From a virus, in IMG/VR virus record IMGVR_UViG_3300035436_000036: a stretch of DNA of 64,000 bases. The stretch is one strand, 5' to 3'. Under the pieces are notes generated by a model, which saw only the letters and a list, made by a program, of their open reading frames with translations, was not told where the DNA came from and did not search any database. Below, in pieces: positions 9,484 to 62,358 of the stretch; position 1 is the stretch's first letter; each line of letters opens with the position of its first letter. The position numbers were made by a program, and so were the translations under genes.

Positions 9484-10011
9484 ATGTCAGTAAACAATCA
9501 ACCATCCAACCTCAACTTCTTGTCGCCAACTGGCTACAAGCTATTGCTGTCCCGTGCTCCTACTGTTGAATTCATGGTTCAGAGAGTGTCGCTTCCCACT
9601 CTTACGTTGCCTGTGACGTATCAGCCTAACCCCTTTGTAGCTATCCCAAGACCAGGTGATCACCTAGAGTTCGGACAACTAAGTGTTACGTTCAAGGTAA
9701 ACGAGAACCTCGACAACTATCTTGAGATCTATAACTGGATGATAGCTCTTGGTAAGCCAGAGAGCTACAGTCAGTACACTCTCAAAGATAGACCATACGA
9801 GGATGCTAACGAGCAAAAGCAGACTGTGGCTTCTGACATCACCCTGACCTTCCTTACAAGCGCAATGAACGGTAACATCGAGTTCACGATGCGTGATTGC
9901 TTCCCTATCTCGCTTACGGATCTTGAAGTAGATTCGACCGTATCAGATGTCGAGTACATCACAGCCTCTGCTACATTTGCTCTGAGAGACTATACAATCA
10001 ATAAAATCTAG
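9484..10011 (+). CDS. Virion structural protein (tail-tube-family / gp3-like tail completion protein?)
   Basis: 175 aa (T4 gp3 176 aa) downstream of late-type sequence GATAAATATA; no firm motif. Confidence 0.35.
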   Translation: MSVNNQPSNLNFLSPTGYKLLLSRAPTVEFMVQRVSLPTLTLPVTYQPNPFVAIPRPGDHLEFGQLSVTFKVNENLDNYLEIYNWMIALGKPESYSQYTLKDRPYEDANEQKQTVASDITLTFLTSAMNGNIEFTMRDCFPISLTDLEVDSTVSDVEYITASATFALRDYTINKI

Positions 10012-10040
10012 TTGACCTTTGTTCCAAAATCTAGTATACT
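10011..10040 (+). promoter_or_regulatory. Sigma70-like early promoter (GTTGACC -35, TATACT -10)
   Basis: TTGACC N17 TATACT 30 nt upstream of uvsY ATG. Confidence 0.6.
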
Positions 10041-10070
10041 GACTTGTAGTTTTAGGAAGATAAGGTTGTT

Positions 10071-10505
10071 ATGAAGATTGAAGATATTCAGAATCTGTGG
10101 TCGCAAGATGTTAAGATCGATCACACAGAGCTCGCAACAGAAGCTCTGCGCATCCCCTCTCTCCATAGTAAGTATTACAACATCTTTAGCCAAGAGCGTC
10201 TCCGTCTCCGTAAGTTTGAGACTGAGCTCAAGAAGCTCAAGCTAGAGAAGTATGAGTTTTTCACCCAAGGACCTACACCCGAAACACACGAGAGAGGCTG
10301 GAAGCTGCCTCCTGTCGGACGGGTCATTAAGTCTGAAGTCAACAACTACATCGATGCAGATGACGAGATCATCACCCTGACACTGAAGATTGGTATTCAG
10401 CAGGAGAAGGTTGAGATGCTTGAATCTATTATCAAGTCTTTGGTCAATAGAGGATTCCTGATCAAGTCTGCCATCGACTTTGAGAAGTTTAAGGTAGGAA
10501 TGTAA
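10071..10505 (+). CDS. uvsY: Recombination mediator UvsY
   Basis: Similarity to T4 UvsY (IEDIQNLWSQDVKIDHTEL vs LEDLQEELKKDVFIDSTKL; C-terminal NRGFLIKSAIDFEKFKVG vs SRGFAIKHIQDMRAFEAG); adjacent to uvsW as in T4. Confidence 0.8.
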   Translation: MKIEDIQNLWSQDVKIDHTELATEALRIPSLHSKYYNIFSQERLRLRKFETELKKLKLEKYEFFTQGPTPETHERGWKLPPVGRVIKSEVNNYIDADDEIITLTLKIGIQQEKVEMLESIIKSLVNRGFLIKSAIDFEKFKVGM

Positions 10506-11963
10506 TTGGAAACCGTACATCTACAGCATATCAATTCTGTTCACTGTAAAGTAGTCACAGATCCATCTATCCTGATGGAGCTAGCAGATCACTTTACCTT
10601 CTTCGCAGAGAACTATAAGTTCAGTCCGAAGTACAAGTCTCGTATGTGGGATGGTAAGATCCGTCTGTTGAATAGATTGACTGCTACGGTGTATGCAGGC
10701 CTTGCCAGACACATCAAGAAGTTCTGTGATGAGCGCGGCTACGGGTTTACTTATGATCCTGAGTTCCAGCATGATAATGTTTCAGTAAGTGAGACTATGG
10801 ATTTCATCGAATCCTTAAACCTTCCTGAACACATCCAGCCCAGAGACTATCAGATCAAGAGCGTTATCAAGTGCCTCCGCTCAAAGCGCAGAACATTGCT
10901 GTCTCCTACATCTTCCGGTAAGTCTCTGATGATCTATATGATCTCTCAGTGGTATAAGAAGAAGACTCTGATTGTGGTTCCTACCATCGGCCTGGTTACC
11001 CAAATGGCTAATGACTTCAGAGCCTACGGCTATAAGGGGACTATGCACGTCTCTACAGATGGTCTTTCGAAGTCAAATAACATCGAAGAAGACATTGTTA
11101 TCACCACCTGGCAGAGTATGGACAACGGCAAGACAAAGATGCCAAAGCAATGGTATCAACAGTTCGAAGTTGTTGTTGGAGATGAGGCGCATACGTGTAA
11201 GGCTGCAACACTGGTCAAGATCCTTACCAACCTCGACAACTGTCAGTATCGCTTCGGTACGACAGGGACGCTGGATGATCTGCCACTAAACAGAATCACT
11301 ATTGAAGGTCTATTCGGACCACAATATCAGGTTGTCACTACCAAGGATCTGATGGAGAGTGGGCATGTATCCAATCTGAAGATCAAGTGCATCGTCCTGA
11401 AATACACTCCGGAAGTCTGTAAGGACATGAAGGGTAAGACATACCAGGAAGAGATAGACTTTATCATAAACAATGATGATAGAACAAAGTTTATCAAGAA
11501 CCTGGCGCTATCATTGAAGGGGAACAAACTTGTATTCTTTAGGGTTATTAGTCACGGCCAAGCCATATCTGACTCCATACGTGATAGCGGGTCTACTAAT
11601 GTGTTCTATATTGATGGTGGGGTTTCGGGAATGGACAGAGAAGCAATTCGTATTGCTGTCGAGGATGAAGAGAACGCTATCATCGTGGCTTCGCTCGGCA
11701 CTACGTCGACAGGGGTGAGCATCAATAAGCTGCATCATATGATTGCAGCATCTCCTTCTAAGTCGAAGATCAAAGTTCTACAGTCCATTGGACGTATGTT
11801 ACGTAAACATACCACAAAGCAGGAAGCAATCCTTTATGACATTGTAGATGATCTCACACACAAGAACCAAGCAAACTTCACATACAAACACTTCATTGAT
11901 AGAACGAAGATCTATGAGAAAGAGAACTTCGACTTCAAGATATACACGGTAGGATTGAAATGA
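10506..11963 (+). CDS. uvsW: UvsW RNA-DNA/DNA-DNA helicase (SF2, DEAH)
   Basis: Near-collinear similarity to T4 UvsW (WDGKIRLLN, LLSPTSSGKSLMI Walker A, VVGDEAHTC, GKTYQEEI, VLQSIGRMLRKH); TTG start. Confidence 0.9.
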   Translation: METVHLQHINSVHCKVVTDPSILMELADHFTFFAENYKFSPKYKSRMWDGKIRLLNRLTATVYAGLARHIKKFCDERGYGFTYDPEFQHDNVSVSETMDFIESLNLPEHIQPRDYQIKSVIKCLRSKRRTLLSPTSSGKSLMIYMISQWYKKKTLIVVPTIGLVTQMANDFRAYGYKGTMHVSTDGLSKSNNIEEDIVITTWQSMDNGKTKMPKQWYQQFEVVVGDEAHTCKAATLVKILTNLDNCQYRFGTTGTLDDLPLNRITIEGLFGPQYQVVTTKDLMESGHVSNLKIKCIVLKYTPEVCKDMKGKTYQEEIDFIINNDDRTKFIKNLALSLKGNKLVFFRVISHGQAISDSIRDSGSTNVFYIDGGVSGMDREAIRIAVEDEENAIIVASLGTTSTGVSINKLHHMIAASPSKSKIKVLQSIGRMLRKHTTKQEAILYDIVDDLTHKNQANFTYKHFIDRTKIYEKENFDFKIYTVGLK

Positions 11964-16106: not shown

Positions 16107-16664
16107 ATGACAGAAGAAGATCGTCATTACCTCTACAGAGACCTTGTAGATTCTAATGATCCAATTCTCAAGCAGAAGATGGGTCGGTTCGACTTCAACG
16201 ACCCTAGTGTCGACCCCCATGAGATAGCTCACATTCTTGCTCAGACCATGATCAAGAATGATGGGCTTGGACTCTCTGCCAACCAAGTTGGATTGCCTTA
16301 CAGGGTGTTCGTGGCAATGGGTAATCCTATCCTTTGCTGCTTCAACCCTGTCATCGTCGATGAATCAGAAGATGAGTTGATGATGGAAGAAGGATGCCTT
16401 TCGTATCCTAACTTGTTCGTCAAGATCAAGCGCCCACAGGTCATTCGTATTCGTTACACGAGACCAGATGGTGTTACAGTCACAGAACAGTATCAGGACC
16501 TCACTGCCAGAGTCATGCAGCATGAGATGGATCACCTCGATGGTATCTGCCACCTGAGTAGAGCCAACTCTATCCATTTGGAACAGGCGCGGACTAAAGC
16601 GAAAAAAGCGTTGAGAAATACAAAGAGTTCGATTATAATGCCTAATAGGCAACTGATCATATAA
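16107..16664 (+). CDS. def: Peptide deformylase
   Basis: All three PDF motifs: GLSANQVG, EGCLS, HEMDHL. Confidence 0.9.
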   Translation: MTEEDRHYLYRDLVDSNDPILKQKMGRFDFNDPSVDPHEIAHILAQTMIKNDGLGLSANQVGLPYRVFVAMGNPILCCFNPVIVDESEDELMMEEGCLSYPNLFVKIKRPQVIRIRYTRPDGVTVTEQYQDLTARVMQHEMDHLDGICHLSRANSIHLEQARTKAKKALRNTKSSIIMPNRQLII

Positions 16665-16715
16665 GGCAAAATGCTGTAATAGATATATACTTCAGGGATA
16701 AAGTATAACCGAGGT

Positions 16716-17276
16716 ATGTATATGAGCAGTAAATCACCTGAGTTTTTTAGTCTGTTTAGAATCACTAACTTAAAGACCGGACAAACATATGAGGCGCGTG
16801 GATACCGCAACACACTTGTGCTAGCAGGCTTAGCTGCATCTACCCCCGCAGCGCAGATGCGCAACAGCAAAAAATGGAAACTCGAAGAAGTTGCTCCGCC
16901 TGAGAAGTGGGACCAAGCAGCCTATAGGAGAGAGCTCTATAAAAAGACATCGGATCGTTATAGGCTATATGAGGCTAAAAAGCTAGCCCAAGATCCCCTG
17001 TATGAGAAGCGGAAACAGGCTAAACTTCGTGGTTGGAAAAACTATGATGGCTCCCAGTTCACTGCTGAACAACACGAGCGTATGTTAATTCAAAGCTGTG
17101 ATATTTGTGGTACAGAAAGTGATATTGTTGTTGACCATTGTCACGAAACAATGTATGTTCGGGGTAGCTTGTGTCGCAAGTGTAACCTAGCTCTCGGACA
17201 CGCTAACGATGATGTAGGAGTTTTAAAATCTATGATTAATTATATTGAAAGACACAGGAACAAGATATATGACTAA
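16716..17276 (+). CDS. HNH/Endonuclease VII-family nuclease (probable freestanding homing endonuclease)
   Basis: C-terminal motif VVDHCHETMYVRGSLCRKCNLALGH matches the EndoVII/HNH signature DHDH..G.VRGLLC..CN..LG. Confidence 0.65.
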   Translation: MYMSSKSPEFFSLFRITNLKTGQTYEARGYRNTLVLAGLAASTPAAQMRNSKKWKLEEVAPPEKWDQAAYRRELYKKTSDRYRLYEAKKLAQDPLYEKRKQAKLRGWKNYDGSQFTAEQHERMLIQSCDICGTESDIVVDHCHETMYVRGSLCRKCNLALGHANDDVGVLKSMINYIERHRNKIYD

Positions 17277-18228
17277 GAAGCATGCATTCAGCGAAATCTT
17301 CTATTCAATTCAAGGTGAGGGATTTTACTGCGGCGTGCCAACCGCGTGGTTGAGGTTCTTCCTCTGCAACCTGCAGTGCAATGGGTTTGGACAGAAGGAT
17401 CCGACAGATGAGTCGACGTACGTTCTTCCTTACAAGGATTTTGATCCTACGTCTGTTAATCGAATTGAGGATCTTCCGGTTTGGTCACATGGTTGTGACT
17501 CGTCTTACTCTTGGTCATCGAAGTTTAAGCATCTGCAGTATAAGAAGACTGCAGCAGAGATCTGTGATCAGATTCAAGCTGAACTCACGAACGAGTGGAA
17601 CCCTACAGGAACGTTCCATCACCCATTGAGCCATGTTGAACAGCATATGTGTTTCACTGGTGGTGAGCCTTTGATGAAACATGGCAAGCAAGCTGTTGTA
17701 GAGATCATCGATGAGTTCAAGATGCGCATGGGTGGCATGTTAGCTATTGACAAGCTCAAGGGCAGCAATCAACCAGAGTTCATCACATTCGAAACAAACG
17801 GCACACAGGAGCTGACAGATGACTTCGTTAATTATTTTGGCAATCGTGGTTGTTACGATGGCGAACTTTTCTTCTCGGTATCACCTAAGCTCTGGACAGT
17901 CGCCGGAGAGCGCCCAGAGAAAGCTATCCAGGCGGACGTTGTTAAGAAGTATGATTGGATCTCCAAAGGTCGAGGACAACTCAAGTTCGTCGTAGGTGAT
18001 AAGCAAGAGCAGTGGGATGAAGTAGATCATGTTGTGCAGCAGATGCGTAAAGCTGGTGTCACATACCCTGTATGGATCATGCCAGTAGGTGCCACAGAAG
18101 AAGCTCAGACTGGTGAGCTAGAAGGATATGCATCGGCTGGTAAGGTCGCTGAGATGGCGTTCAAACGAGGTTATAATGTGTCTGCCCGAGTGCATGTGTA
18201 TCTCTGGGGCAATTTGATTGGAGTATAA
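17269..18228 (+). CDS. queE: QueE-like radical-SAM 7-carboxy-7-deazaguanine synthase
   Basis: IFYSIQGEGFYCGVPTAWLRFFLCNLQC (QueE pattern F.SIQGEG..G.P..F.R..CNL.C with Cx11Cx3C cluster motif) and GGEPL motif; start moved to ATG with RBS AGGAACAAG. Confidence 0.6.
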   Translation: MTKKHAFSEIFYSIQGEGFYCGVPTAWLRFFLCNLQCNGFGQKDPTDESTYVLPYKDFDPTSVNRIEDLPVWSHGCDSSYSWSSKFKHLQYKKTAAEICDQIQAELTNEWNPTGTFHHPLSHVEQHMCFTGGEPLMKHGKQAVVEIIDEFKMRMGGMLAIDKLKGSNQPEFITFETNGTQELTDDFVNYFGNRGCYDGELFFSVSPKLWTVAGERPEKAIQADVVKKYDWISKGRGQLKFVVGDKQEQWDEVDHVVQQMRKAGVTYPVWIMPVGATEEAQTGELEGYASAGKVAEMAFKRGYNVSARVHVYLWGNLIGV

Positions 18229-18721
18229 TATGGTGAGTGAGATGCCTTCTGTTATAATTTATAGTCAAAACGACTTCCTTGAGGGGGTCGAATACATTGC
18301 TCGTCAGGTCGAGCGAGAAGAATACAAGCCTGACCTGATCGTTGGTATTGTAAGAGGTGGAAGCGTTCCTGCTGTATACCTTTCGCATCGTCTAAAGATT
18401 CCTGTCCAGATGGTTCACTGGAATACTCGTGATAGCTCGAAGTGGGGCAATGAGTCTAACTGTTGGATCCCCGAGCAGATCATAGACAACGATCTAAAGG
18501 TGCTGCTCGTCGATGATATTGTTGATGGTGGCGATACCATTAGAGAGCTTCTTGCAGACTGGCAGACATCAGTAGCTGGTAGCGGCAACTTACCTGTTGA
18601 CAATATTCGAATTTGCAGTATGATATATAACACAGCCCAGAGTGTTAGACCTCATTTCTACCACCAGACCATTGATCGTAATGAAGATCAGCGGTGGGTA
18701 ATCTTCCCTTGGGAAGCCTAA
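18218..18721 (+). CDS. Xanthine/guanine phosphoribosyltransferase-like (type I PRTase)
   Basis: IVGIVRGGSVPAVYLSHRLKIP and PRPP-binding VLLVDDIVDGGDT resemble E. coli Gpt. Confidence 0.6.
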   Translation: MEYNMVSEMPSVIIYSQNDFLEGVEYIARQVEREEYKPDLIVGIVRGGSVPAVYLSHRLKIPVQMVHWNTRDSSKWGNESNCWIPEQIIDNDLKVLLVDDIVDGGDTIRELLADWQTSVAGSGNLPVDNIRICSMIYNTAQSVRPHFYHQTIDRNEDQRWVIFPWEA

Positions 18722-18787
18722 GCGGCCTTTACAGCTCATCCCGCTATACAAACTCTGCTGCTCTATTAACCAATAGAGGAAAACACA

Positions 18788-19240
18788 ATGCCATATTTTA
18801 GTACAAAACATTACGGACATAACATCGGTCTGTCAGCTGTCTTCCGGCAGCCTAATGCCGATCACTCTCACTGCCATTTCCTGCATGGGTATAGTCTTGC
18901 ATTCACATTCAAGTTTGGATGTAATGAGCTTGACAACAAGAACTGGGCAGTCGACTTCGGTGGTCTGAAAGAGATCAAGGCGTGGCTCGAAGATAGCTTT
19001 GACCACAAGGTTGCAATCGATGTCAATGATCCTCACCTCGATAAGTTCAAAGAGCTAGCAGCTCATGACCTTGCACAGATCCGTATCTTCAATGGTGTCG
19101 GTGCAGAGAAGTTTGCCTTTCATGCATTCCAGTTTGCTGATAGGTTGATCAGAGAGAAGACAAATGGCCGCTGCTGGGTGCAGTCGGTTGAGTGTGCAGA
19201 GCACGGAGCCAATTCGGCTATCTATGAAAGAGAAGTATAA
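18788..19240 (+). CDS. queD: QueD / 6-carboxy-5,6,7,8-tetrahydropterin synthase (PTPS fold)
   Basis: HCHFLHGYS zinc motif, DFGGLKEIKAWLEDSFDHKVAID like QueD CGRLHGHS ... DFAELK ... LDHHYLN. Confidence 0.75.
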   Translation: MPYFSTKHYGHNIGLSAVFRQPNADHSHCHFLHGYSLAFTFKFGCNELDNKNWAVDFGGLKEIKAWLEDSFDHKVAIDVNDPHLDKFKELAAHDLAQIRIFNGVGAEKFAFHAFQFADRLIREKTNGRCWVQSVECAEHGANSAIYEREV

Positions 19241-47538: not shown

Positions 47539-47548
47539 GATTTAATCC

Positions 47549-47998: not shown

Positions 47999-48017
47999 AC
48001 AATACCTCAATTAGTGG

Positions 48018-48045
48018 TTGACATAATTCGAAAAGTATTTATAAT
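48018..48045 (+). promoter_or_regulatory. Early promoter (TTGACA N16 TATAAT) for DNA polymerase
   Basis: Canonical sigma70 elements 22 nt upstream of ATG 48067, RBS GGAG. Confidence 0.65.
48036..48043 (-). promoter_or_regulatory. Late promoter TATAAATA on minus strand for holin-endolysin, embedded in divergent early promoter of gp43
   Basis: Reverse complement of TATTTATA at 48036-48043. Confidence 0.45.
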
Positions 48046-50622: not shown

Positions 50623-50623
50623 G

Positions 50624-50935: not shown

Positions 50936-51213
50936 TGGCTAACATCAAACTAGACGAATCATTCGACTTCGGCTTCTCCATCGTGGATGAAGGAGAGCTG
51001 GAAGTACTACAAGAGGCACAAGATACCATCACGACTGTATCTGCAGAAGCAGCTACACTCGAGGACAGGCTGAACAAGCTGTACAATATGATGATGCCAC
51101 TACTCAACAACCTTGCAAAGAACCCAGACAAGAACTATATCTTCTGGCCCAATAGACTTGCAAAGATCGAACAATTCCGCGATCAGTTGGACAAGGTCTA
51201 TCTTAACAGTTGA
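50935..51213 (+). CDS. Hypothetical protein (92 aa)
   Basis: TAATG-overlap ORF. Confidence 0.4.
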   Translation: MANIKLDESFDFGFSIVDEGELEVLQEAQDTITTVSAEAATLEDRLNKLYNMMMPLLNNLAKNPDKNYIFWPNRLAKIEQFRDQLDKVYLNS

Positions 51214-51238
51214 CCTTTATAGTAAAACATCGTATAAG
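51210..51238 (+). promoter_or_regulatory. Early promoter cassette copy upstream of uvsX
   Basis: CAGTTGACCTTTATAGTAAAACATCGTATAAGGT. Confidence 0.55.
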
Positions 51239-51269
51239 GTAACTACAGTTAGAGCTACAAGGAGTCATT

Positions 51270-54292: not shown

Positions 54293-54324
54293 GGGCAGGC
54301 TCGAAAGGGCCTGCCCTTTTTTTA
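54293..54324 (+). terminator. Rho-independent terminator (preceded by a second GC hairpin at ~54246-54283)
   Basis: GGGCAGGCTCGAAAGGGCCTGCCC + TTTTTTT. Confidence 0.8.
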
Positions 54325-54335
54325 TGGAGAAAGTG

Positions 54336-54794
54336 ATGGCTAATTGGTCAAAAAGAACGTCCAGTAAATCAGGGACATATTCAAGAACAACGAGAACAAC
54401 AAACAGTAAGGGTGGATCGACCCGCTCTATAAGTACGCGTGTAGGCTCGGGGCCGCGGACTACAGAATCTATTAAGCAACAGAATGGTAAGGTCACCATT
54501 CGTAGATACACAACCGAGTACAATCCTTCTTTGGGCACAAAGCGGACTCAGCAGACTGTGTATAACACCAAGGCGACAAAAACACCCAAGCCTAAGAAAC
54601 CAAGGAAGCCGAGAAAGGCAAGAGTATCCCGCTCTCGTAACAGCGCGATATCATTCACCTCAGCGCCTATACCGAGAGATTGGGAAAAGCATCCTCATGG
54701 TTCAAGGTGGGAAGATACTCACGTTTTCCCCGAGTGGTGTCACTGGATGTTCTGGGGACTCCTCGGTTACTTTGTCGTAAGCCTTGTAATATAG
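54336..54794 (+). CDS. Highly basic Ser/Thr/Arg/Lys-rich protein with C-terminal TM anchor
   Basis: Composition (TKTPKPKKPRKPRKARVSRSR), hydrophobic tail WMFWGLLGYFVVSLVI. Confidence 0.5.
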   Translation: MANWSKRTSSKSGTYSRTTRTTNSKGGSTRSISTRVGSGPRTTESIKQQNGKVTIRRYTTEYNPSLGTKRTQQTVYNTKATKTPKPKKPRKPRKARVSRSRNSAISFTSAPIPRDWEKHPHGSRWEDTHVFPEWCHWMFWGLLGYFVVSLVI

Positions 54795-54797
54795 TTG

Positions 54798-54837
54798 TTG
54801 ACCTTTTTATGAAAATAAGGGATAAGGGGGTATCAAT
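54798..54837 (+). promoter_or_regulatory. Early promoter cassette copy
   Basis: GTTGACCTTTTTATGAAAATAAGGGATAAGGGGGTATCAAT. Confidence 0.6.
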
Positions 54838-54850
54838 TACGGAGAAAATC

Positions 54851-55093
54851 ATGATAAAGCAAGTGACGACCGAAGAACTGGCTGGGGCTCTCAAGGGAAT
54901 CAGCATGGGACTGATTGAAAAAGAGAATCAGACCACAGATGAGATCTGCCTGGGCATTGAATTCTTCGAGCTGTGGGGCCTCGATGAGGGTGCCAATATT
55001 ATGTGGGACAAGCTCGGGGGTCGTGATGGGGCCAACAAGATTTACAAGAAGTGGCAGAAGGATGAAGCGAGACGGCGAACAAATAGTCGTTGA
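54851..55093 (+). CDS. Hypothetical early protein (80 aa)
   Basis: ATG 14 nt after promoter with GGAGAAAATC RBS. Confidence 0.45.
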   Translation: MIKQVTTEELAGALKGISMGLIEKENQTTDEICLGIEFFELWGLDEGANIMWDKLGGRDGANKIYKKWQKDEARRRTNSR

Positions 55094-55127
55094 CCTTTTT
55101 GTGAAAATAAGGGATAAGGGTATATAA
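55089..55127 (+). promoter_or_regulatory. Early promoter cassette copy (consensus form)
   Basis: CGTTGACCTTTTTGTGAAAATAAGGGATAAGGGTATATAATG. Confidence 0.65.
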
Positions 55128-55144
55128 TGAAAAAGGAAACAAAC

Positions 55145-55447
55145 ATGACAGCTTTCACGAAACAGAATTTGGTAATCAGTGGCGACTACGTCTTCTATCA
55201 GCCTCACGCTGACAACTACTGGGAAGATCGTCAGTTCGTTGCTCGCTTCAAGCATCGTGGTCCAGTCACGAAAGCTAAGTTCATTAAGACTCTCATCAAT
55301 CACTACTCACCCGAAACTTACTTCGCTCGTCTGGCTGGTGCTTTTAACCCTAAGGGCGAAGCTCCGCTGCAGATCCTCATGAACGATGACATTCTTGTCT
55401 TCGACAACGAAAACCGTAAGTTCATCCTCGACGGAAAGGTATTATAA
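55145..55447 (+). CDS. Hypothetical early protein (100 aa)
   Basis: Start placed after AAAGGAA RBS rather than ATG inside -10 box. Confidence 0.45.
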   Translation: MTAFTKQNLVISGDYVFYQPHADNYWEDRQFVARFKHRGPVTKAKFIKTLINHYSPETYFARLAGAFNPKGEAPLQILMNDDILVFDNENRKFILDGKVL

Positions 55448-55448
55448 T

Positions 55449-55664
55449 ATGGCTATTGATGTTAAAGAAGTTGGCTCGGTTTGGAGCCTCACGGATATGG
55501 AGTTCACCTCGTACGACGAAGGCGAAGAGCTGGTCTACACAGGCGTTTATGGATTGTTCACGACACGTGAAGGTGCAGAGCGCGCTAGTCGTTTGCTCTC
55601 CGAATCAGACTCCAATCTGCCACGTGGTAACTGGGTTATCGCAGAAGAGTATCTGTACGAATGA
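55449..55664 (+). CDS. Hypothetical early protein (71 aa)
   Basis: ORF. Confidence 0.4.
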   Translation: MAIDVKEVGSVWSLTDMEFTSYDEGEELVYTGVYGLFTTREGAERASRLLSESDSNLPRGNWVIAEEYLYE

Positions 55665-55668
55665 TCTG

Positions 55669-55705
55669 TTGACCTTTTTATGAAAATAAGGGATAAGGGT
55701 ATATC
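55669..55705 (+). promoter_or_regulatory. Early promoter cassette copy
   Basis: TGTTGACCTTTTTATGAAAATAAGGGATAAGGGTATATC. Confidence 0.65.
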
Positions 55706-55728
55706 AAAAGCAAACAAAGGAATTCAAA

Positions 55729-55911
55729 ATGAATCTTCGTAACCCAACCTACACATACAATTTTCAAACTTCACAGCCCCTTACAGAAGCTCAAATTGAA
55801 TGGCTTAATAACCAACTTTGGGACAACCTTCCTACCGAAAACGATCTCGAAGATATCCCAGAATGGACCACAGAAATCAAACTCGATAGCGTCGAAGAAG
55901 AAATCGATTAA
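55729..55911 (+). CDS. Hypothetical early protein (60 aa)
   Basis: ORF. Confidence 0.4.
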   Translation: MNLRNPTYTYNFQTSQPLTEAQIEWLNNQLWDNLPTENDLEDIPEWTTEIKLDSVEEEID

Positions 55912-55922
55912 TTGGAGTAATT

Positions 55923-56165
55923 ATGAATCTGTACTCAACTACTGCGCTGACTCCATTTCTTACCCAGGAGGCAATAGAATACCATAGACGTATGGAAGAA
56001 CTGTATGAAGAGATCAGTAATCGTGCCCGGAGAATGCGCCGTATGACATGGTCAGATCATGATTGGGATAATTGGGATCCAGCTGCGGAAGAGGCACGGA
56101 TCCGTGCTGAAGTACGGGCGCGGATGAAATGGGAAAGATGTAATCAGTCGTTGACCTTTTTGTGA
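55923..56165 (+). CDS. Hypothetical early protein (80 aa; Arg/Glu-rich)
   Basis: ORF. Confidence 0.4.
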   Translation: MNLYSTTALTPFLTQEAIEYHRRMEELYEEISNRARRMRRMTWSDHDWDNWDPAAEEARIRAEVRARMKWERCNQSLTFL

Positions 56166-56188
56166 AAAAGAGGGATAAGGGTATATAA
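56151..56188 (+). promoter_or_regulatory. Early promoter cassette copy (overlaps 3' end of upstream ORF)
   Basis: CGTTGACCTTTTTGTGAAAAAGAGGGATAAGGGTATATAATG. Confidence 0.65.
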
Positions 56189-56205
56189 TGAAAAAGGAAT
56201 TGAAA

Positions 56206-56439
56206 ATGACTGATGGTGAAATGACCCAATATCTTTTGGACACGGCTGATGTTCCCAAGGCAGCTCGGACCTCCTATGCTGCAGGATACTTTGAATCGAC
56301 TCTCCTGACTCTGATGGCTCAGTTTCCCGAGGTCCGCAAGGAGATCGAGTGGCGGGTCAATTACCGCCAGAATGAGATTGAAGTCAAAGAGTACAACGAG
56401 CGTGCCGATGCTCGGCGTGCAACGATGGAGATTGCATAA
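56206..56439 (+). CDS. Hypothetical early protein (77 aa)
   Basis: ORF after AAAGGAATTGAAA leader. Confidence 0.45.
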   Translation: MTDGEMTQYLLDTADVPKAARTSYAAGYFESTLLTLMAQFPEVRKEIEWRVNYRQNEIEVKEYNERADARRATMEIA

Positions 56440-56603
56440 TGTATAAGGCTGTATTGTTGAACGTAGGGGAAACGATCTACGAAGGTATGGATCAGCTCCA
56501 GGCTATCCTCAAGGCTCAGTTCGCTGGTTCGGAAGCGATCGTATACTCGCCGGACGGTGGTTCGATGATCTATGATCCTGCTTCTGGCTGGCGGCAGTTA
56601 TAA
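56439..56603 (+). CDS. Hypothetical small protein (54 aa)
   Basis: TAATG-coupled ORF not in track. Confidence 0.3.
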   Translation: MYKAVLLNVGETIYEGMDQLQAILKAQFAGSEAIVYSPDGGSMIYDPASGWRQL

Positions 56604-56615
56604 TTAAAATAACTG

Positions 56616-56652
56616 TTGACCTTTTCGTGAAAATATCGGATAAGGGTATATC
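56616..56652 (+). promoter_or_regulatory. Early promoter cassette copy
   Basis: CTGTTGACCTTTTCGTGAAAATATCGGATAAGGGTATATC + CAAGAGTGAAAAGGAAG leader. Confidence 0.65.
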
Positions 56653-56675
56653 AAGAGTGAAAAGGAAGATTTAAA

Positions 56676-56951
56676 ATGGCTTATCCTACAAATGTTCTAG
56701 TTGGTGACCGCGTTCGTTGGCAGTCGTGCGAAGGCACGAAGCGTGGTGAAGTGATGCAGATCTTTACTGCGATGGATTCGTATGGTGATGACATCGAATT
56801 CTATCACATCGCATACAGCGATGGTTTCAATGGAACTGCGATGGCTATGATCTCGGAAGATCGTCTCCATGAGATCGAATTCAAGGTCATCTTCCGTGAC
56901 TGGGAGCTTCAAGCTGCTCAGAACGACTATGAGCGTATGGTGGAGATGTGA
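56676..56951 (+). CDS. Hypothetical early protein (91 aa)
   Basis: ORF. Confidence 0.45.
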   Translation: MAYPTNVLVGDRVRWQSCEGTKRGEVMQIFTAMDSYGDDIEFYHIAYSDGFNGTAMAMISEDRLHEIEFKVIFRDWELQAAQNDYERMVEM

Positions 56952-57011
56952 GATAGAAATACCTAGTTGCCTTTATTCCTCAGCTAGGGTATAACTAGAA
57001 TATGGACAGGG

Positions 57012-57082
57012 TCACGAGTGACTTTTCGTAAATTGCTGAATTGCTATGTGAGTCGGCCCTGTCCATATTCCTTTTTTGGAGA
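57012..57082 (+). terminator. Long imperfect hairpin (ATATGGACAGGG ... CCCTGTCCATAT) followed by T-run; preceded by a second hairpin CCTAGTTG...CAGCTAGG (56964-56990)
   Basis: 12-bp inverted repeat separated by ~45 nt, then CCTTTTTTGG. Confidence 0.5.
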
Positions 57083-57087
57083 TTGTT

Positions 57088-57303
57088 ATGTATCAACGTG
57101 GTGGTAAAGTTTCGAAGCCGATTGGCGATGAGCGGATTAATCCGATGACTCTGATGCAGTTCGCGCGCGAATGCGCAGCGCAGCTTAATGGAGCTGGCGA
57201 AGAAGATGCAGCTCATTACTTCGAGCAGATTGTGGATCATCTGCGTTCTGGTAAGGGTCTGACTGCGGATCCTCGTAAAGTTTCCTCTATTCTAGGATTG
57301 TAA
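57088..57303 (+). CDS. Hypothetical protein (71 aa)
   Basis: ORF. Confidence 0.4.
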   Translation: MYQRGGKVSKPIGDERINPMTLMQFARECAAQLNGAGEEDAAHYFEQIVDHLRSGKGLTADPRKVSSILGL

Positions 57304-57304
57304 T

Positions 57305-57472
57305 ATGGATATTGCACAACAACTGGGACGCATTCATGATGCTCGAATGGCTATGATTCGAGCTCAGAATCCTAAGTTCCGAGAGCTATGGTTTAATGTG
57401 GCCAATAAGTTAGTCGACAGCCTGGGACCGGGTCAACCTTGGCTCCGTACATATGATGGGAAATTGAAATGA
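57305..57472 (+). CDS. Hypothetical protein (55 aa)
   Basis: ORF not in track; ATGA overlap with next gene. Confidence 0.3.
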   Translation: MDIAQQLGRIHDARMAMIRAQNPKFRELWFNVANKLVDSLGPGQPWLRTYDGKLK

Positions 57473-57873
57473 TTATTCAGAACGCAGTGACGTGTTTAGG
57501 ATGTGGAGACTTCATCGTCTCTAAGCATCGTCACGATTTTGTAACTTGCACCTGTGGCTCTATCTCGGTAGATGGTGGTCAGGCATACCTTCGTCGGGTC
57601 GGGGACTTTACAAACGCTGTCGATCATTCGTGGGAACTTCCTGACGAATTGTATCGGCAATGTGCCGATGCGGTAGAAGAGGCTATCGATACCAATCGTA
57701 ATAAGTTTGGTATTGCTAATGCTGTATTGCGGAGGCTTCGAGCAGTTGCGCGTATTGTGGCTGACGGTGAACAGCGTATTATAGCATGTAATACCGAGCA
57801 TGATGAGATCATGATCGAAGAAGCAGACGGCACGTTTAATCGTTATAGGAAGGTGACTGATGTCGTGGAATGA
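57469..57873 (+). CDS. Zinc-ribbon (CxxC...CxC) protein
   Basis: CLGCGD...CTCGS cysteine cluster. Confidence 0.45.
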   Translation: MIIQNAVTCLGCGDFIVSKHRHDFVTCTCGSISVDGGQAYLRRVGDFTNAVDHSWELPDELYRQCADAVEEAIDTNRNKFGIANAVLRRLRAVARIVADGEQRIIACNTEHDEIMIEEADGTFNRYRKVTDVVE

Positions 57874-58147
57874 TATCATCCCCGCTAGCATTTTAAGAGA
57901 AGGTACGAATATGAACCTCGAAGTCGAAGCCTACGAAGGTGAGCTTGAAATGCTCCGCCGCTGCTTTCAGCTTGTTAAGCATACGGGCCTGGCAGAGAAG
58001 ATGGGTGGCATCTACTTCATCTCTGGTGAGGGTGGCGAGAAGGATAAGAACAACCTTCCTGAACGAATCCATATCTGCCCTGCCTATGGTGTTGACTGGT
58101 TCCAGATCTACGAACGCACCGATAAAACTTTCGGTCCGGAGTGGTAA
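57860..58147 (+). CDS. Hypothetical protein (95 aa; alt start 57911)
   Basis: ORF. Confidence 0.4.
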   Translation: MSWNDIIPASILREGTNMNLEVEAYEGELEMLRRCFQLVKHTGLAEKMGGIYFISGEGGEKDKNNLPERIHICPAYGVDWFQIYERTDKTFGPEW

Positions 58148-58154
58148 AATAATT

Positions 58155-58184
58155 GTTGACTTTTTCGTGAGAATGATATAAATT
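58155..58184 (+). promoter_or_regulatory. Early promoter (TTGACT ... GATATAAAT)
   Basis: Diverged copy of cassette. Confidence 0.5.
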
Positions 58185-58209
58185 GTATTATAGATTGAAA
58201 GGAAGTCAA

Positions 58210-58374
58210 ATGAAGAAGCATATCGAACTTGAGAAGATCGCAGTCGCTAACGTACTTAGCGAGTTCACTGTGTCGAGCATTGCTCGTAACCCCGTTGAGG
58301 TTCACATACTGATTGCTCGTGCAAGTCAGTTGCTGCTTCAATCAGCAAAGACCCCTCGCAAGGTTGCTGCATAA
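58210..58374 (+). CDS. Hypothetical protein (54 aa)
   Basis: ATG after AAAGGAAGTCAA RBS. Confidence 0.35.
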   Translation: MKKHIELEKIAVANVLSEFTVSSIARNPVEVHILIARASQLLLQSAKTPRKVAA

Positions 58375-58397
58375 AATTTGTTTGTGAAAGATATATT

Positions 58398-59462
58398 ATG
58401 ACCTATTTTCTACGTTCTGGCAATACCTATCGTGTGACTGACGAGGCCGCTCTTGATCTCCATCAGCTGCTTCCTGCCGGTAACTACATTATCAAGCAGG
58501 ATCCTTTCGGGAATCTCTTCCTCGAGGAAACCGATAAGTTCAAGCCACTCTCAAAGTACTACGGGGATTGCTTGAAGCACTCTGAGCGAATCCATCGTAC
58601 TTTTGATGAACGCCCCTCGTCTACTGGTGTCATGCTGACTGGCGAGAAGGGTTCTGGTAAGACTCTGCTGGCTAAGCAGCTCTCGATCCTTGGCTATGAG
58701 CTTGGTATTCCTACCATTGTGATCAATCACGATTGGACAGGGGATGCTTTCAATAAGTTTCTTGCCGACATCGACCAGCCCTGCATCATTCTCTTTGACG
58801 AGTTTGAGAAGGTCTACGACAGCCACAAGCAGGAAGCTATCCTGACTCTGCTCGATGGTGTGTTTCCTTCGAAGAAGCTGTTTGTCCTGACTTGCAATGA
58901 CAAGTGGCGTATCGACCAGCATATGCGTAACCGTCCTGGTCGCATCTTCTACATGATCGACTTCAAAGGTCTTACCTCGGAGTTCATTATCGAATACTGT
59001 AACGATAATCTTGAGGATAAGTCGTACACCGATCAGATCACAAAGATCGCTACTCTGTTCACCGAGTTCAACTTCGATATGCTCAAGGCAATGGTTGAGG
59101 ATATGAATCGTTACGGCGAGAGTCCGCAGGAAGTTATGCAGCTGCTGAACGCCAAGCCCGAATATGATAATCGTGATCAGGCAAAGTTCAAGGTCGAGTT
59201 GGTTGATGAAACAGGTCAGCGCGTAGAAGAGAAGTATCTCTATACGAAGACGTGGAATCGCAATCCTCTGGCTAGCAACACCATCATGATTGAACTCGTC
59301 GATGATGATGAGAATGATGGCGCGATCTATAATTTCGATCAGTCCGAGCTGTTCAACGTCAACGGACAGACAGGCACGTTCGAATACCGAGCCAAGGACG
59401 GCTCGCGTCTCAAGCTGACTCGTGAGAAGCAGCAAACCTTTAACTACTTTGGAGCACTTTGA
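58398..59462 (+). CDS. AAA+/P-loop ATPase
   Basis: Walker A GEKGSGKT, Walker B IILFDEFEK. Confidence 0.55.
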   Translation: MTYFLRSGNTYRVTDEAALDLHQLLPAGNYIIKQDPFGNLFLEETDKFKPLSKYYGDCLKHSERIHRTFDERPSSTGVMLTGEKGSGKTLLAKQLSILGYELGIPTIVINHDWTGDAFNKFLADIDQPCIILFDEFEKVYDSHKQEAILTLLDGVFPSKKLFVLTCNDKWRIDQHMRNRPGRIFYMIDFKGLTSEFIIEYCNDNLEDKSYTDQITKIATLFTEFNFDMLKAMVEDMNRYGESPQEVMQLLNAKPEYDNRDQAKFKVELVDETGQRVEEKYLYTKTWNRNPLASNTIMIELVDDDENDGAIYNFDQSELFNVNGQTGTFEYRAKDGSRLKLTREKQQTFNYFGAL

Positions 59463-59463
59463 T

Positions 59464-59703
59464 ATGACTAAGATTTCTATTGATTTGGATTATGAAGTTA
59501 TCGATGAGATTGTTCAGGGTCAGCTAGTACGTAGTTGGGAAGCTCTCAAGGATGACCTTGGAGCTGGTCGTAACATCTTCGTCTGGGGCGTCTTCCTCGC
59601 GGATGATGTAGAGATCCAGAAACATCTAGATGCATTTGAGCTTTTGATCAAATGGTATTCAACTCCTGATCAGCTTCGTGAGCTGGGTCTCAAGGTCGAC
59701 TAA
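59464..59703 (+). CDS. Hypothetical protein (79 aa)
   Basis: ORF. Confidence 0.4.
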   Translation: MTKISIDLDYEVIDEIVQGQLVRSWEALKDDLGAGRNIFVWGVFLADDVEIQKHLDAFELLIKWYSTPDQLRELGLKVD

Positions 59704-59704
59704 A

Positions 59705-60256
59705 ATGAACATCTTCTACCTTGACGAAGATCCCAGGCAGTGTGCTGAGTGGATGGTCGACAAGCATGTAGTCAAGATGATTCTCGAAACGGCTCAACTA
59801 CTATCTACTGCTCATCGTCTGATTGATGGGGAAGAGGTGGTAGTTGAGCTGCGGCACAAAGATACAGGAAAGGTGAAGAAGAAAAGTGTGTGGATCCTGC
59901 CCGACGACCGCAATGACGTTATTTACGCTTGCACACACCGCAACCACCCCAGTGCTATATGGTGTCGAGAGTCAGTTGAAAACTACAACTGGTTGGTCGA
60001 CCATCTCCACGCTCTGGGACAAGAGTATACCTGCAGATATGGAAAGAAACATGCAACGATTGAGAAATGCTTTTATCAACTCCAATCCCCTCCTTTTGGG
60101 CTCCGTACTTGGGATTGGAGCAGCCCTCCTTCTGCAATGGATGGGTCTTATATAATCTCGGATGATCCGATTGTGAACTATCGTAACTATTACACTAAAG
60201 CTAAGGCCTATCTTAAGAGCTATAAGAATCGCCAGCCGCCGCCGTGGTGGCAGTAA
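59705..60256 (+). CDS. Hypothetical protein (183 aa)
   Basis: ORF; YLDEDPRQCAEWMVDKH N-terminus, no family assigned. Confidence 0.45.
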   Translation: MNIFYLDEDPRQCAEWMVDKHVVKMILETAQLLSTAHRLIDGEEVVVELRHKDTGKVKKKSVWILPDDRNDVIYACTHRNHPSAIWCRESVENYNWLVDHLHALGQEYTCRYGKKHATIEKCFYQLQSPPFGLRTWDWSSPPSAMDGSYIISDDPIVNYRNYYTKAKAYLKSYKNRQPPPWWQ

Positions 60257-60881
60257 TGGTTTTAATGTTATAATTTGACAACGGGGTAACACCCTTAATT
60301 ATATTAAGAGCTGTTGTTCTCGTAACTCCCAAATAACGTCCCAATTGGGACTTGCTCTTGAAGAGCATCGTCACACCATTTGTGAATGTGACAGCTATAG
60401 CTTCGCCCCTTCCTTCGCTAATCTTATCCTTAGTTTCCTCGGTATGGCGGTGGCGCCCACCTTTGATACGTGAATCAATACGTTTGGTAACGTGGTCAGG
60501 AGTCTGCTTTCTACCCTTCAGATAATTGAGTCCCATATGAGACTCTGATATTCTTCGCTTGGTTTCATCTGACAACGACTTGCCCAACCGGTGCTTATTT
60601 CCTATACCCCACCCCATCAAGCCGTCTTCGTCCTTAAGGTTGGCCCACTCCTTTGACTCTATAATATTATTAGATTTGGAGTAGCTGAGGGCGAACTCTG
60701 TGCACTCTTCTTGATTGTCGAACACCCATACTTCTAGAGTTTCTACAAACTCTTTGCCGTGTCTTTTAATATGACGAAGCCATTTGAGTCCTGACCCATT
60801 ATAGCTATACGGATCTCTAACAGTTTTACCGAAATATTTGAGTTTCGTGATTGAATGTTGTTTAACGTATAAGTAGATCAT
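60213..60881 (-). mobile_element. Freestanding GIY-YIG homing endonuclease on opposite strand, driven by late promoter TATAAATA (minus strand, + coords 60899-60906)
   Basis: MIYLYVKQHSITKLKYFGKT...YSYNGSG GIY-YIG motif; NUMOD-like ETKRRISESHMG / EETKDKISEG; start re-set to internal ATG with RBS AAGGAAAG. Confidence 0.8.
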
Positions 60882-60948
60882 GATCTTTCCTTGCTGCTTA
60901 TTTATAATTTTAACTACTACAAGCACGGTAAGAAAACACATAGGCTTT

Positions 60949-60980
60949 ATTTGAAACCGGCTTCGGCCGGTTTTCCTTTG
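60949..60980 (+). terminator. Stem-loop AAACCGGCTTCGGCCGGTTT + T-rich
   Basis: Perfect 7-bp GC stem with TTCG tetraloop. Confidence 0.45.
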
Positions 60981-61011
60981 TCTGATAAATAGACCATTAA
61001 CGTTAAACCGA

Positions 61012-62322
61012 GTGGGTACAATGGCTGTTTTAAGAACTACAGGAGCTGGGAGACTGAGTAAGTATACCTCGAGTCTACTTGGGGTAGTGACTAGCTCTAT
61101 GGAAAGCGGCGCGAAGCTCAGTTTTACAACCAGCAATAAGACCACTTCCTATGCTATTAAAAAGACTGCAGCTAACAAAAAAGCTCTAGAAGAGTACACC
61201 AAGCTAGCAGCCACAGCTTCAACTGAACCTAAAGCAAAATCAACTACTCTTGAAACAACAACAGGTGTTGACGTTCCGATAGGTAACCTTGAAAAGAAGC
61301 ATGTGAAGCCTGACGCCTTCAATAGAGGGGACGTATCGGAAGGACTACTCGCTGCAGCAATTACTGCGCGTTTCATAAACAAGAACAAAACTATAACAAA
61401 GCAAGATGCTATCAACGTTCTTAAAGCTCTCCGCCCCTCTGGTGGAACGAAGGTAGACCAGATATTTACATCTGAGAACCAGAACCCTGCAATTAAGGAT
61501 CGAGTACGAGTCGTGATATCTCTAGCCGAGATAAACATGAAGGCTTTGTTAAATCCTGCTAACCTTAACAGCCTTGGAGATCTGATTGTAGCCAGCGTCA
61601 AGTATGCGAACGGTCCATATATTACAGCGTGGTCAAAACTACTTTATGAAAATAACGTCCGTAATGACATCGATGTTGTATCTGACGGGTTGCTGGATCA
61701 AAGCGGAACCAAAGTTGACCTAAGAGTCAAGGTGGATGGCAATCAAACTAACGTGAACGTATCTTTGAAGGCTGGTGACGTCAAGCAGTTCGGCCAGGTG
61801 TCAGGATCCAAGTTAGAGAATATGGCCGCATTGTTCAATCCTCTCGGCTTAAGAGTCGAGACTCAGGAATCGAAATTCAATCAGTTTCTAATGAAGAAGG
61901 ATACGGTCGGGGCCACATCGTTGATCTACAACTACGTCTCGAAGACACTAGCGGCAGAAGCATCGAACAATAAAAACAGCTTTCTTAAACACCTGAGCGC
62001 ATTCATCAAGTTCCACGCTACGCGCGACGAAGAGAATGTTACGCTAGTCCAGCTTAATAGAAACGAAGCAAAGATTTACGATTTCGACAACCTACAGAAG
62101 ACGATGACAGACGTTGAGCCAACTGTGTTCATCAAGAATGGATACTCTGATGTAGCGAAGGCTCAGGTGCCAACCATCGTGATTGCTGACAAATCAAGAA
62201 CAGGTAAGAATGAGCTTCTCACTATCAGAATGAAAATTGATACCAGGCCCGATGGATTCTATCATAGAAACTACATCGAGAAGGGCGCTCTGCTGGGTGA
62301 TCTAATTGCCGAATATGCATAA
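61012..62322 (+). CDS. Hypothetical protein (436 aa)
   Basis: ORF; region SDGLLDQSGTKVDLRVK loosely resembles a PD-(D/E)xK nuclease core, unconfirmed. Confidence 0.5.
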   Translation: MGTMAVLRTTGAGRLSKYTSSLLGVVTSSMESGAKLSFTTSNKTTSYAIKKTAANKKALEEYTKLAATASTEPKAKSTTLETTTGVDVPIGNLEKKHVKPDAFNRGDVSEGLLAAAITARFINKNKTITKQDAINVLKALRPSGGTKVDQIFTSENQNPAIKDRVRVVISLAEINMKALLNPANLNSLGDLIVASVKYANGPYITAWSKLLYENNVRNDIDVVSDGLLDQSGTKVDLRVKVDGNQTNVNVSLKAGDVKQFGQVSGSKLENMAALFNPLGLRVETQESKFNQFLMKKDTVGATSLIYNYVSKTLAAEASNNKNSFLKHLSAFIKFHATRDEENVTLVQLNRNEAKIYDFDNLQKTMTDVEPTVFIKNGYSDVAKAQVPTIVIADKSRTGKNELLTIRMKIDTRPDGFYHRNYIEKGALLGDLIAEYA

Positions 62323-62328
62323 TAGCTG

Positions 62329-62358
62329 TTGACTTTTTATGAAAATGAGTCTATAAGG
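62329..62358 (+). promoter_or_regulatory. Early promoter (TTGACT ... TATAAG)
   Basis: GCTGTTGACTTTTTATGAAAATGAGTCTATAAGGGTAATATG. Confidence 0.55.

Follow-up and report, generated by a model that had tools for sequence, protein, structure and literature searches.

The window analysed here, the 64,000 nucleotides of the IMG/VR virus record IMGVR_UViG_3300035436_000036 (one strand, 5´ to 3´), represents part of the genome of an uncultivated T4-like myovirus and carries a family of repeated promoter-like elements, hereafter called cassettes. The T4-type genes encoded in the window comprise gp18 (sheath), gp20 (portal), gp23 (capsid), UvsW, a gp46-like gene, gp43 (polymerase), UvsX and gp41, and nearly all window genes are located on the + strand. 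Megablast searches with 20 kb of the window retrieved no DNA-level match to any cultured phage. At the protein level, gp43 shows at most 48% identity to cyanophage polymerases, and the capsid proteins of Stenotrophomonas phage DLP6, Methylophilales phage Melnitz, Pelagibacter phage Mosig and Sinorhizobium phage phiM12 share 65-72% identity with gp23. The late and structural genes of the window are preceded by T4-type late promoters of the form (N)ATAAATA.

Twelve cassettes were identified in the window, all of them on the + strand (Table 1; positions within a cassette are numbered from the first T of TTGACC, which is position 1). A profile hidden Markov model (HMM) built from the copies returned exactly these 12 sites, with E-values from 8.5e-14 to 7e-4, and the next match has E = 1.3. 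The 20-nt core GTTGACCTTTTYGTGAAAAT has nine matches in the window at up to three mismatches, compared with 0.01 expected by chance. With a 44-nt position weight matrix (PWM) the eight near-identical copies (strict in Table 1) score 56-71 bits and the diverged cassettes 3, 5 and 11 score 12-28 bits, the best score in shuffled sequence being below zero; the diverged cassette 12, which shows a 1-nt register shift in the spacer, was picked up by the HMM. The preliminary description of this DNA had located the 12 copies correctly to within 0-2 nt, and the family it proposed exists far beyond chance expectation. Its count of at least 15 near-identical copies has to be revised to eight near-identical copies, four diverged ones and three sites that do not belong to the family. 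The latter, listed as simpler versions at 10011, 27585 and 48018, are all missed by the HMM and are better described as generic sigma70-like promoter candidates (TTGAC-N16/17-TATACT/TATATC/TATAAT); at least one further candidate of this kind is found near 20400. The unit is also longer than the approximately 42 nt first given: conservation does extend well past the hexamers, but the whole unit measures about 70 nt, from about position -9 to the ATG. The leader CAAGAGTGAAAAGGAA, said to follow the cassette often, is present in exact form in three of the 12 copies, while the remaining copies have related purine-rich leaders. Stand-alone half cassettes do not occur in the window, where the spacer block and the GATAAGG-TATAT block are found solely together, in cassettes.

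Table 1. Cassettes and associated features of the window (ORF, open reading frame; aa, amino acids).
Feature	Coordinates	Strand	-35 hexamer	First -10 hexamer	Start codon (downstream gene)	Remarks
Cassette 1 (strict)	28622-28687	+	TTGACC 28632-28637	GATAAG 28655-28660	ATG 28688 (RNA ligase, Pfam RNA_lig_T4_1)	Left border of mobile module
Cassette 2 (strict)	30513-30582	+	30523-30528	GATAAG 30546-30551	ATG 30583 (72-aa ORFan)	Right border of 1.9-kb RNA-ligase module
Cassette 3 (diverged)	33522-33591	+	TTGCCT 33532-33537	TATAAG 33555-33560	Likely ATG 33592	Second TATAAG 10 nt downstream; in tRNA array; HMM E = 9e-9
Cassette 4 (strict)	43086-43153	+	43096-43101	GATAAG 43119-43124	ATG 43154 (116 aa)	Top PWM score, 71.5 bits; begins 4 nt past CHASE2-cyclase ORF
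Cassette 5 (diverged)	51200-51269	+	TTGACC 51210-51215	TATAAG 51233-51238	ATG 51270 (UvsX)	Without second box; HMM E = 4e-7; orthologous copies in L013, L014, L029
Cassette 6 (strict)	54788-54850	+	54798-54803	GATAAG 54821-54826	ATG 54851 (80-aa ORFan)	Breakpoint in L014
Cassette 7 (strict)	55080-55144	+	55090-55095	GATAAG 55113-55118	Likely ATG 55145	TGA of -35 is upstream ORF stop; TATAAT 55123-55128; breakpoints in L014, L021, L029
Cassette 8 (strict)	55659-55728	+	55669-55674	GATAAG 55692-55697	ATG 55729 (60-aa ORFan)	
Cassette 9 (strict)	56141-56205	+	56151-56156	GATAAG 56174-56179	Likely ATG 56206	-35 overlaps upstream stop; TATAAT 56184-56189; breakpoints in L014, L021, L029
Cassette 10 (strict)	56606-56675	+	56616-56621	GATAAG 56639-56644	ATG 56676 (91-aa ORFan)	Breakpoints in L014, L018, L027
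Cassette 11 (diverged)	58146-58209	+	TTGACT 58156-58161	TAAATT 58179-58184	ATG 58210	HMM E = 2e-5
Cassette 12 (diverged)	62319-62363	+	TTGACT 62329-62334	TATAAG 62352-62357	ATG 62364 (polynucleotide-kinase-like ORF)	ATG 7 nt past -10, without Shine-Dalgarno; HMM E = 7e-4
Mobile gene module	28688-30519	+				RNA ligase and two small ORFs; between cassettes 1 and 2
Intrinsic terminator	54293-54316	+				10-bp G+C-rich stem followed by T7
Hyperplastic region	54324-58374	+				Six cassettes within 3.4 kb, each followed by 1-4 small ORFs; every related contig has its own gene content and order
Generic sigma70-like promoter candidate (non-family)	10012-10040	+				TTGACC-17-TATACT
Generic sigma70-like promoter candidate (non-family)	27584-27612	+				TTGACT-17-TATATC; ATG 7 nt past -10
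Consensus sigma70 promoter candidate (non-family)	48018-48045	+				TTGACA-16-TATAAT; 5´ of DNA polymerase

An exact-pattern scan of IMG/VR for the cassette retrieved 31 loci (L numbers below), which are hence ascertained via the cassette itself; with the window included, this makes 76 unique cassette sequences, which head approximately 34 different gene families. The copies share a common plan. Positions -9 to -4 form an A-rich tract (consensus AAAATAA; A or T in 51-71% of the 76 copies), which usually holds the stop codon of the upstream gene; in two copies, cassette 7 among them, the TGA within TTGAC doubles as this stop codon. An invariant G at position 0 precedes the -35 hexamer TTGAC(C) at positions 1-6. 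The 17-nt spacer consists of a T-tract (7-11), three variable bases (12-14; GTG, ATG or CGT), an A-tract (15-18/19) and a variable stretch (19-23), with T7-T10 and A15-A18 at least 93% conserved. The -10 hexamer (G/T)ATAAG at positions 24-29 is followed by GG at 30-31. The layout TTGAC(C/T)-N17-(G/T)ATAAG recurs in all 12 window copies (see Table 1 for the individual hexamers), and 97% of the 76 unique copies have a -10-like hexamer at 24-29. Exactly 10 bp downstream, at 34-39, a second -10-like hexamer (TATCAA, TATAAG, TATAGA or TATAAT) is present in 74% of copies; this second box is less conserved and has been lost from at least five otherwise intact copies. The 3´ part is a purine-rich leader with an AAGGA Shine-Dalgarno sequence and then an ATG, located at +54 to +62. 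In 72 of the 76 copies a Shine-Dalgarno sequence plus an open ATG was found, mostly at +53 to +65 with the mode at +61.

We assign the working -10 to the hexamer at 24-29, because this hexamer is -10-like in 97% of copies, lies 17 nt from the -35, shares its register with the canonical variants (the minority variants TATATT and TAAATT as well as the non-family TATACT/TATAAT) and fits the geometry of the start codons, the second box being weaker and sometimes lost. Every copy points in the direction of its genes, either lying within a gap of about 60 nt or overlapping the stop codon upstream. The genes downstream, namely RNA ligase, a polynucleotide-kinase-like gene, UvsX and small ORFans, are typical of T4 early genes. 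No window copy lies in the structural/core block (1-27 kb), and six are packed between 54.8 and 58.2 kb, where they head ORFs of 54-106 aa with either no PHROG match or matches of unknown function. Anatomy, strand, position and gene context are as expected of T4-type early promoters and, at the level of sequence, speak for the early-promoter character suggested in the preliminary description. At cassette 12 (62352-62366) and at the non-family candidate 27584 (27607-27621; 74-aa ORF) the ATG stands exactly 7 nt past the -10 without a Shine-Dalgarno sequence; both mRNAs are predicted to be leaderless.

The second box does not qualify as a late promoter: the late motif of this phage is (N)ATAAATA, whereas the cassette boxes read GATAAGGG and TAT(C/A)A(A/G/T) and are preceded by a -35; none of the cassettes shows the T4-type late (gp55) layout, a TATAAATA-like -10 without -35. 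Further promoter types were compared by eye with their consensus sequences. A Bacteroidetes-type promoter (TTTG ... TAnnTTTG), considered owing to relatives of the cyclase gene described below in Bacteroidetes bins, does not fit, and the phage has clear Shine-Dalgarno sequences. The flagellar sigma28 promoter (TAAA-N15-GCCGATAA) was rejected as well: although CCGATAA is seen in many copies, positions 20-23 vary and the -35 misfits. Sites for CRP, Fur or NtcA were discarded for want of a second half-site.

The coding DNA of the related contigs is 70-94% identical to that of the window, or cannot be aligned at all. Variable positions (11-14, 19-23, 31-33) and fixed ones are the same throughout the 76 copies, and the 28 copies that fall outside the retrieval pattern keep the same blocks (GTTGaC.TTTTt...AAAA......ATAAgGg..tat). 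Such a constant pattern of fixed and variable positions across diverged contigs indicates selection on the T-tract, the A-tract and ATAAGG, beyond recent copying. Beyond these relatives, a blastn search of the 66-nt cassette against 50,697 phage records gave one weak match (E = 0.5), in an uncultured phage, and 50 kb of DLP6, the closest gp23 relative (56% G+C), contain no cassette.

The preliminary description had proposed to look for recombination breakpoints at cassette copies among related genomes, and this check turned out positive. Alignment of the loci to the window yielded 31 unique structural differences, not all of them independent events; 17 of them reach into a cassette with one end or more, five with both. 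Of their 62 ends, 22 fall within cassette footprints (1.9% expected from the footprint, about 9% from gene boundaries; binomial P of about 6e-9), and breakpoints fall at nine of the 12 window cassettes.

Two of the rearrangements concern the RNA-ligase module between cassettes 1 and 2. In L019 and L025, from two metagenomes, the segment corresponding to window positions 28679-30521 (RNA ligase plus two ORFs) is deleted, and a single chimeric cassette is left at the junction, its 5´ part matching cassette 28632 and its 3´ part plus leader matching cassette 30523. This is the product expected of a crossover between two direct repeats. In L001 and L014, again from two metagenomes, the same 1.9-kb module is located 27 kb away, in the 55.9-kb region, with a cassette at its right border and its left border at the start codon.

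The hyperplastic region offers further examples. In L001, L014 and L021 the block formed by cassette 55669 and its genes stands upstream of the block formed by cassette 55090 and its genes; the window shows the reverse order, shared by L029. Five loci from five metagenomes have the terminator 54293-54316 joined directly to cassette 55669, and at this junction the window carries an extra 1.34 kb with one ORF and two more cassette modules. L001_2774 and L027_1976 read CCTTTTTTTG-TTGACC, that is, a terminator directly 5´ of a cassette, an arrangement resembling the promoter-early stem-loop (PeSL) units of T4-type phages considered at the end of this text. At L014 8555-8600 a partial cassette, TTTTTGTGAAAATAACTG, is fused directly 5´ of a complete TTGCCT-type cassette; it resembles the "degraded half PeSLs" of the literature and suggests slippage between cassettes.

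Taken together, our analysis favours, with a probability of roughly 70%, the view that these repeats of an uncultivated T4-like myovirus function as early promoter-plus-leader cassettes and double as recombination substrates. Each cassette would represent a self-contained expression signal, extending from the A-rich tract to the ATG about 60 nt past the -35, with an unstructured leader. Judging from anatomy and gene context, a host sigma70-type RNA polymerase would start about 7 nt past the first -10 immediately after infection, and transcription would probably read through from unit to unit, because there are almost no terminators between the units. The near-identity of copies over 45-60 bp provides portable homology on which UvsX, UvsW and the gp46-like protein, all encoded in the window, could act. 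The comparison with the relatives shows cassette-bounded modules that have been lost, gained, moved to another site or traded among related genomes, each of them always retaining what would be a working promoter.

Several observations weigh against this reading. The -7 base of the -10 is G in 64 of the 76 unique copies. In sigma70-type promoters a T is nearly always found at this position. Because of the G, a standard consensus scan calls no TTGACC-17-GATAAG site, and in three copies the generic scan instead calls TTGTGA/GTGAAA-16/18-TATAAT, via the second box; the G at -7 may reflect an unusual host sigma specificity or the need for an extra factor. As to rearrangement, in 14 of the 31 structural differences both ends lie outside cassettes (e.g. 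50616-50912 and 58374-59462), which means that cassettes are not the sole route to rearrangement. Two such indels concern recognizable genes: an AAA-ATPase ORF (58398-59462, +) is missing from L028 and L029, and a 103-aa ORF just past the DNA polymerase gene (50624-50935, +) is missing from L013, L014, L028 and L029. Neither is cassette-bounded, so other indel mechanisms must operate too. Metagenome assemblers can moreover mis-join contigs at repeats; the repeat is, however, at most about 60 nt and below read length, and the main junctions recur in independent samples. Finally, the retrieval of loci through the cassette biases both the conservation of the 5´ half and the breakpoint enrichment.

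A first alternative keeps the core promoter function and attributes the extended conservation, i.e. the T4-5/N3/A4-5 pseudo-palindrome and GATAAGG plus second box, to a protein-binding site, either for a phage early-shutoff repressor or activator or for a host factor, or else to two overlapping promoters of two temporal classes. We consider this unlikely, yet it has several points in its favour. The strongly conserved T7-T10 and A15-A18 flank three bases that vary freely, as do positions 19-23; neither the spacer block nor the GATAAGG-TATAT block is found by itself in the window; the second hexamer, where present, keeps its exact 10-bp distance; and the second promoters called by the generic scan in three copies would fit the overlapping type. 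Overlapping promoters have been proposed for RB49 and the cyanomyoviruses, both of them without MotA and AsiA (PMC2984593). Against a dedicated operator, the non-family promoters 10012 and 48018 and that of L032 also have a T-rich and then A-rich spacer, which points to a general preference of RNA polymerase or of DNA shape. The loss of the second box from at least five otherwise intact copies also counts against this alternative, and the TTG at positions 10-12 needed for a second -35 exists in only about half of the copies. Pfam and PHROGs scans of about 40 window ORFs gave no match to a transcription factor, AsiA, MotA, Alt or a Q-like protein, most small ORFs being unannotatable. There is a modest chance that the G at -7, the fixed T/A-tract spacer and the second hexamer add a regulatory layer to the early promoter-plus-leader cassette.

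According to a second alternative, the conserved positions outside the hexamers carry no function in themselves, and their conservation stems from recent spread by duplication together with the modules, plus homogenisation by gene conversion, also between co-infecting phages. Paralogous copies indeed share long identical runs that include presumably neutral leader positions (30523/43096/56616 and 55090/56151), two L027 copies agree in a rare 3´ half, the cassette subtype at orthologous sites differs among contigs, which points to exchange, and L019 holds the chimeric cassette. But variation is uneven, and the same positions are fixed even where the coding DNA is only 70-80% identical or beyond blastn detection. 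As a full account homogenisation seems quite improbable to us; it probably contributes, but is insufficient.

A bolder extension of the promoter-plus-leader model would see in every cassette a three-part control device for its early module, made up of a non-canonical -10 (G at -7), a T/A-tract in the spacer that serves as a docking site for a phage or host factor, and a second hexamer that recaptures sigma one helical turn downstream. This is speculative and in our judgement decidedly unlikely. If true, sigma recapture could cause a promoter-proximal pause or a second start register, and the timing or shutoff of all early genes would be factor-dependent in a T4-like phage without AsiA and MotA.

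That cassettes serve a dedicated site-specific recombinase as recognition sites, or mark where mobile elements end, is very improbable. It would account for the strong concentration of breakpoints in cassettes, and a helper protein has also been raised as a possibility by the authors of the PeSL work (PMC2839356). The module borders, however, are scattered, from the stretch between spacer and -10 (L019) to the 3´ edge or ATG (L014 at 28688; L029 at 55145 and 56204) and the 5´ edge (L008 at 28624); terminal inverted repeats and target duplications are missing; no integrase or transposase adjoins the modules among the ORFs scanned; and the window encodes recombination proteins of its own (UvsX, UvsW, gp46-like). 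The varied crossover points and the differing subtypes at orthologous sites fit general homologous recombination better than a site-specific enzyme.

Equally remote is an action through nucleic-acid structure, be it a spacer stem-loop, a PeSL-type terminator hairpin or a structured read-through RNA. The stem-loop read into the spacer by the preliminary description (CCTTTTT...AAAATAAGG) fails: CCTT...AAGG pairing is possible in copies 54798, 55090 and 55669, but overall pairing reaches 72%, exactly as in shuffles (72%), the two G-C pairs are formed in 26 and 21 of 57 aligned copies, under half in each case, and covariation is absent. An alternative stem, CCTTTT(C/T) with GATAAGG, is paired in 89% of the cells of the same 57-copy alignment, owing to invariant columns, and shows zero covariation. 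Folded as DNA, the 12 copies give weak structures (between -0.5 and -5.3 kcal/mol) that differ among copies; copy 28632 folds better than its shuffles (z = -3.5), but 10 of the 12 z-scores are above -2. Folding of the upstream 70 nt gave a hairpin at 56616 only (56598-56618; A/T-rich, weak, z = -2.7), the other 11 copies resembling shuffles. A terminator scan found none at the cassettes save two marginal calls, although three copies in relatives come after the terminator 54293-54316. With Rfam 15 no cassette matched at the gathering score, the only hits in the window being tRNAs and a manA RNA. In addition, a transcription start downstream of the -10 would leave the spacer outside the cassette's own RNA. 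Structure-based readings are largely refuted.

The window contains a number of further features. Its 24 tRNA genes form two arrays (27940-28175 and 32448-35954), and cassette 33532 and a small ORF are embedded in the second one. A manA RNA motif (Rfam RF01745) at 36185-36354 (+) scores 64.8 bits against a gathering score of 55.2 and lies directly 5´ of a peroxiredoxin-like ORF (36382-36972). Two strong intrinsic terminators (37458-37496 and 9430-9470) are combined with an immediately following late motif, TATAAATA at 37489 and GATAAATA near 9462, respectively. Minus-strand genes form two islands: 46354-48010 (-) with a Peptidase_M15 plus GH19 lysin-like ORF and a small membrane-like ORF, and 60213-61145 (-) with a NUMOD3 homing-endonuclease-like ORF that overlaps the 3´ end of a pyrimidine-dimer-glycosylase-like ORF (59678-60256). 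Auxiliary genes usual in aquatic T4-like phages (peptide deformylase, QueE- and QueD-like 7-deazaguanine genes, Hsp20 and endonuclease VII) are located at 16107-19240 and 45763-46320. Unusual in a T4-like phage is the ORF at 41034-43091 (+), whose 685 aa fuse a CHASE2 sensor domain to an adenylate/guanylate cyclase domain. Its closest genome match (72% aa identity; L032 2001-4028) is on a 46.6-kb contig binned as a Bacteroidetes metagenome-assembled genome, the flanks of which are unrelated to the window; this contig carries a cassette-like promoter, TTGACA-TTTTCGATAAAATCAGG-CATAAT.

If the promoter-plus-leader cassettes act as proposed, cassette-mediated modular shuffling, previously documented in three pairs of cultured T4-type phages, would reach a remote, uncultivated part of the T4 superfamily. 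The data at hand stem from natural populations, in which the same module is seen at two genomic sites and is missing from a third genome, and they show that a terminator hairpin is not needed for the shuffling role. The HMM from the 76 copies can serve as a marker for early genes and hyperplastic regions in metagenomic T4-like contigs. The G at -7, the fixed spacer and the tandem -10-like boxes also provide a lead on how early transcription is recognized and timed in T4-like phages without the classical T4 regulators.

Among known systems, the lambdoid late promoter PR' has a Q-binding element between -35 and -10 and a -10-like element in the initially transcribed region, which brings about a sigma70-dependent pause. 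The formal layout, a sigma70 promoter with a conserved spacer element and a second -10-like hexamer just downstream, is the same in the cassettes, and the comparison may serve as a lead. It differs in that there is no sequence similarity, no Q-like protein identified, dozens of copies per genome rather than one, and no downstream terminators to override.

A second comparison concerns the T4 early promoters. Their consensus likewise extends past the sigma70 hexamers (GTTTAC...TATAAT). Shared with the cassettes are this extended conservation, the G before the -35 and the A-rich upstream tract, as well as the position in front of early genes and the very high density; use of the host polymerase and read-through into downstream units, as in T4, would be expected here. 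Signs of Alt/Mod-type modification or of AsiA/MotA were not found. The sequences themselves differ, the cassette -10 lacking the canonical T at -7, and the core genes of the window phage are closer to the branch of the cyanophages, Melnitz, Mosig, phiM12 and DLP6. For cyanomyoviruses and RB49, without MotA and AsiA, reliance on unmodified host polymerase together with overlapping promoters has been proposed (PMC2984593).

The closest parallel is the PeSL, described in the pairs RB49/phi1, T4/PST and KVP40/nt-1 (Arbiol et al. 2010, PMC2839356; Comeau et al. 2014, PMC4122927). PeSLs combine strong sigma70-like early promoters and terminator stem-loops with an AT-rich tract, a Shine-Dalgarno sequence and an ATG; they are concentrated in hyperplastic regions, bring about indels and give rise to mini-circles (PMC2839356, PMC4122927). 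The likeness to PeSLs drawn in the preliminary description holds for the promoter, the AT-rich tract, the Shine-Dalgarno/ATG part, the location and the indels. As to the stem-loop it is imprecise: that of a PeSL is a terminator hairpin upstream of the promoter, and a hairpin in this place is found, in weak form, at one of the 12 copies. Both systems repeat an AT-rich tract, a sigma70-like -35, N17, a -10, a Shine-Dalgarno sequence and an ATG, with one unit for one to few small ORFans. Units of both kinds accumulate in hyperplastic regions and are seldom found in structural or core blocks. In both, the ends of insertions, deletions, replacements and displacements between related genomes fall in the units, with crossovers between -10 and ATG or within the promoter, like the published mini-circle junctions. 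The PeSL terminator, by contrast, has no counterpart in 11 of the 12 window copies, where upstream genes end at or inside the -35, and a cassette has a hairpin only where it follows a terminator, as in some relatives. Further differences are the strongly conserved T-tract/A-tract spacer of the cassette, its (G/T)ATAAG -10 with G at -7 and its second -10-like hexamer 10 bp on. The cassette operates in the manner of a PeSL, although strictly speaking it is not one.

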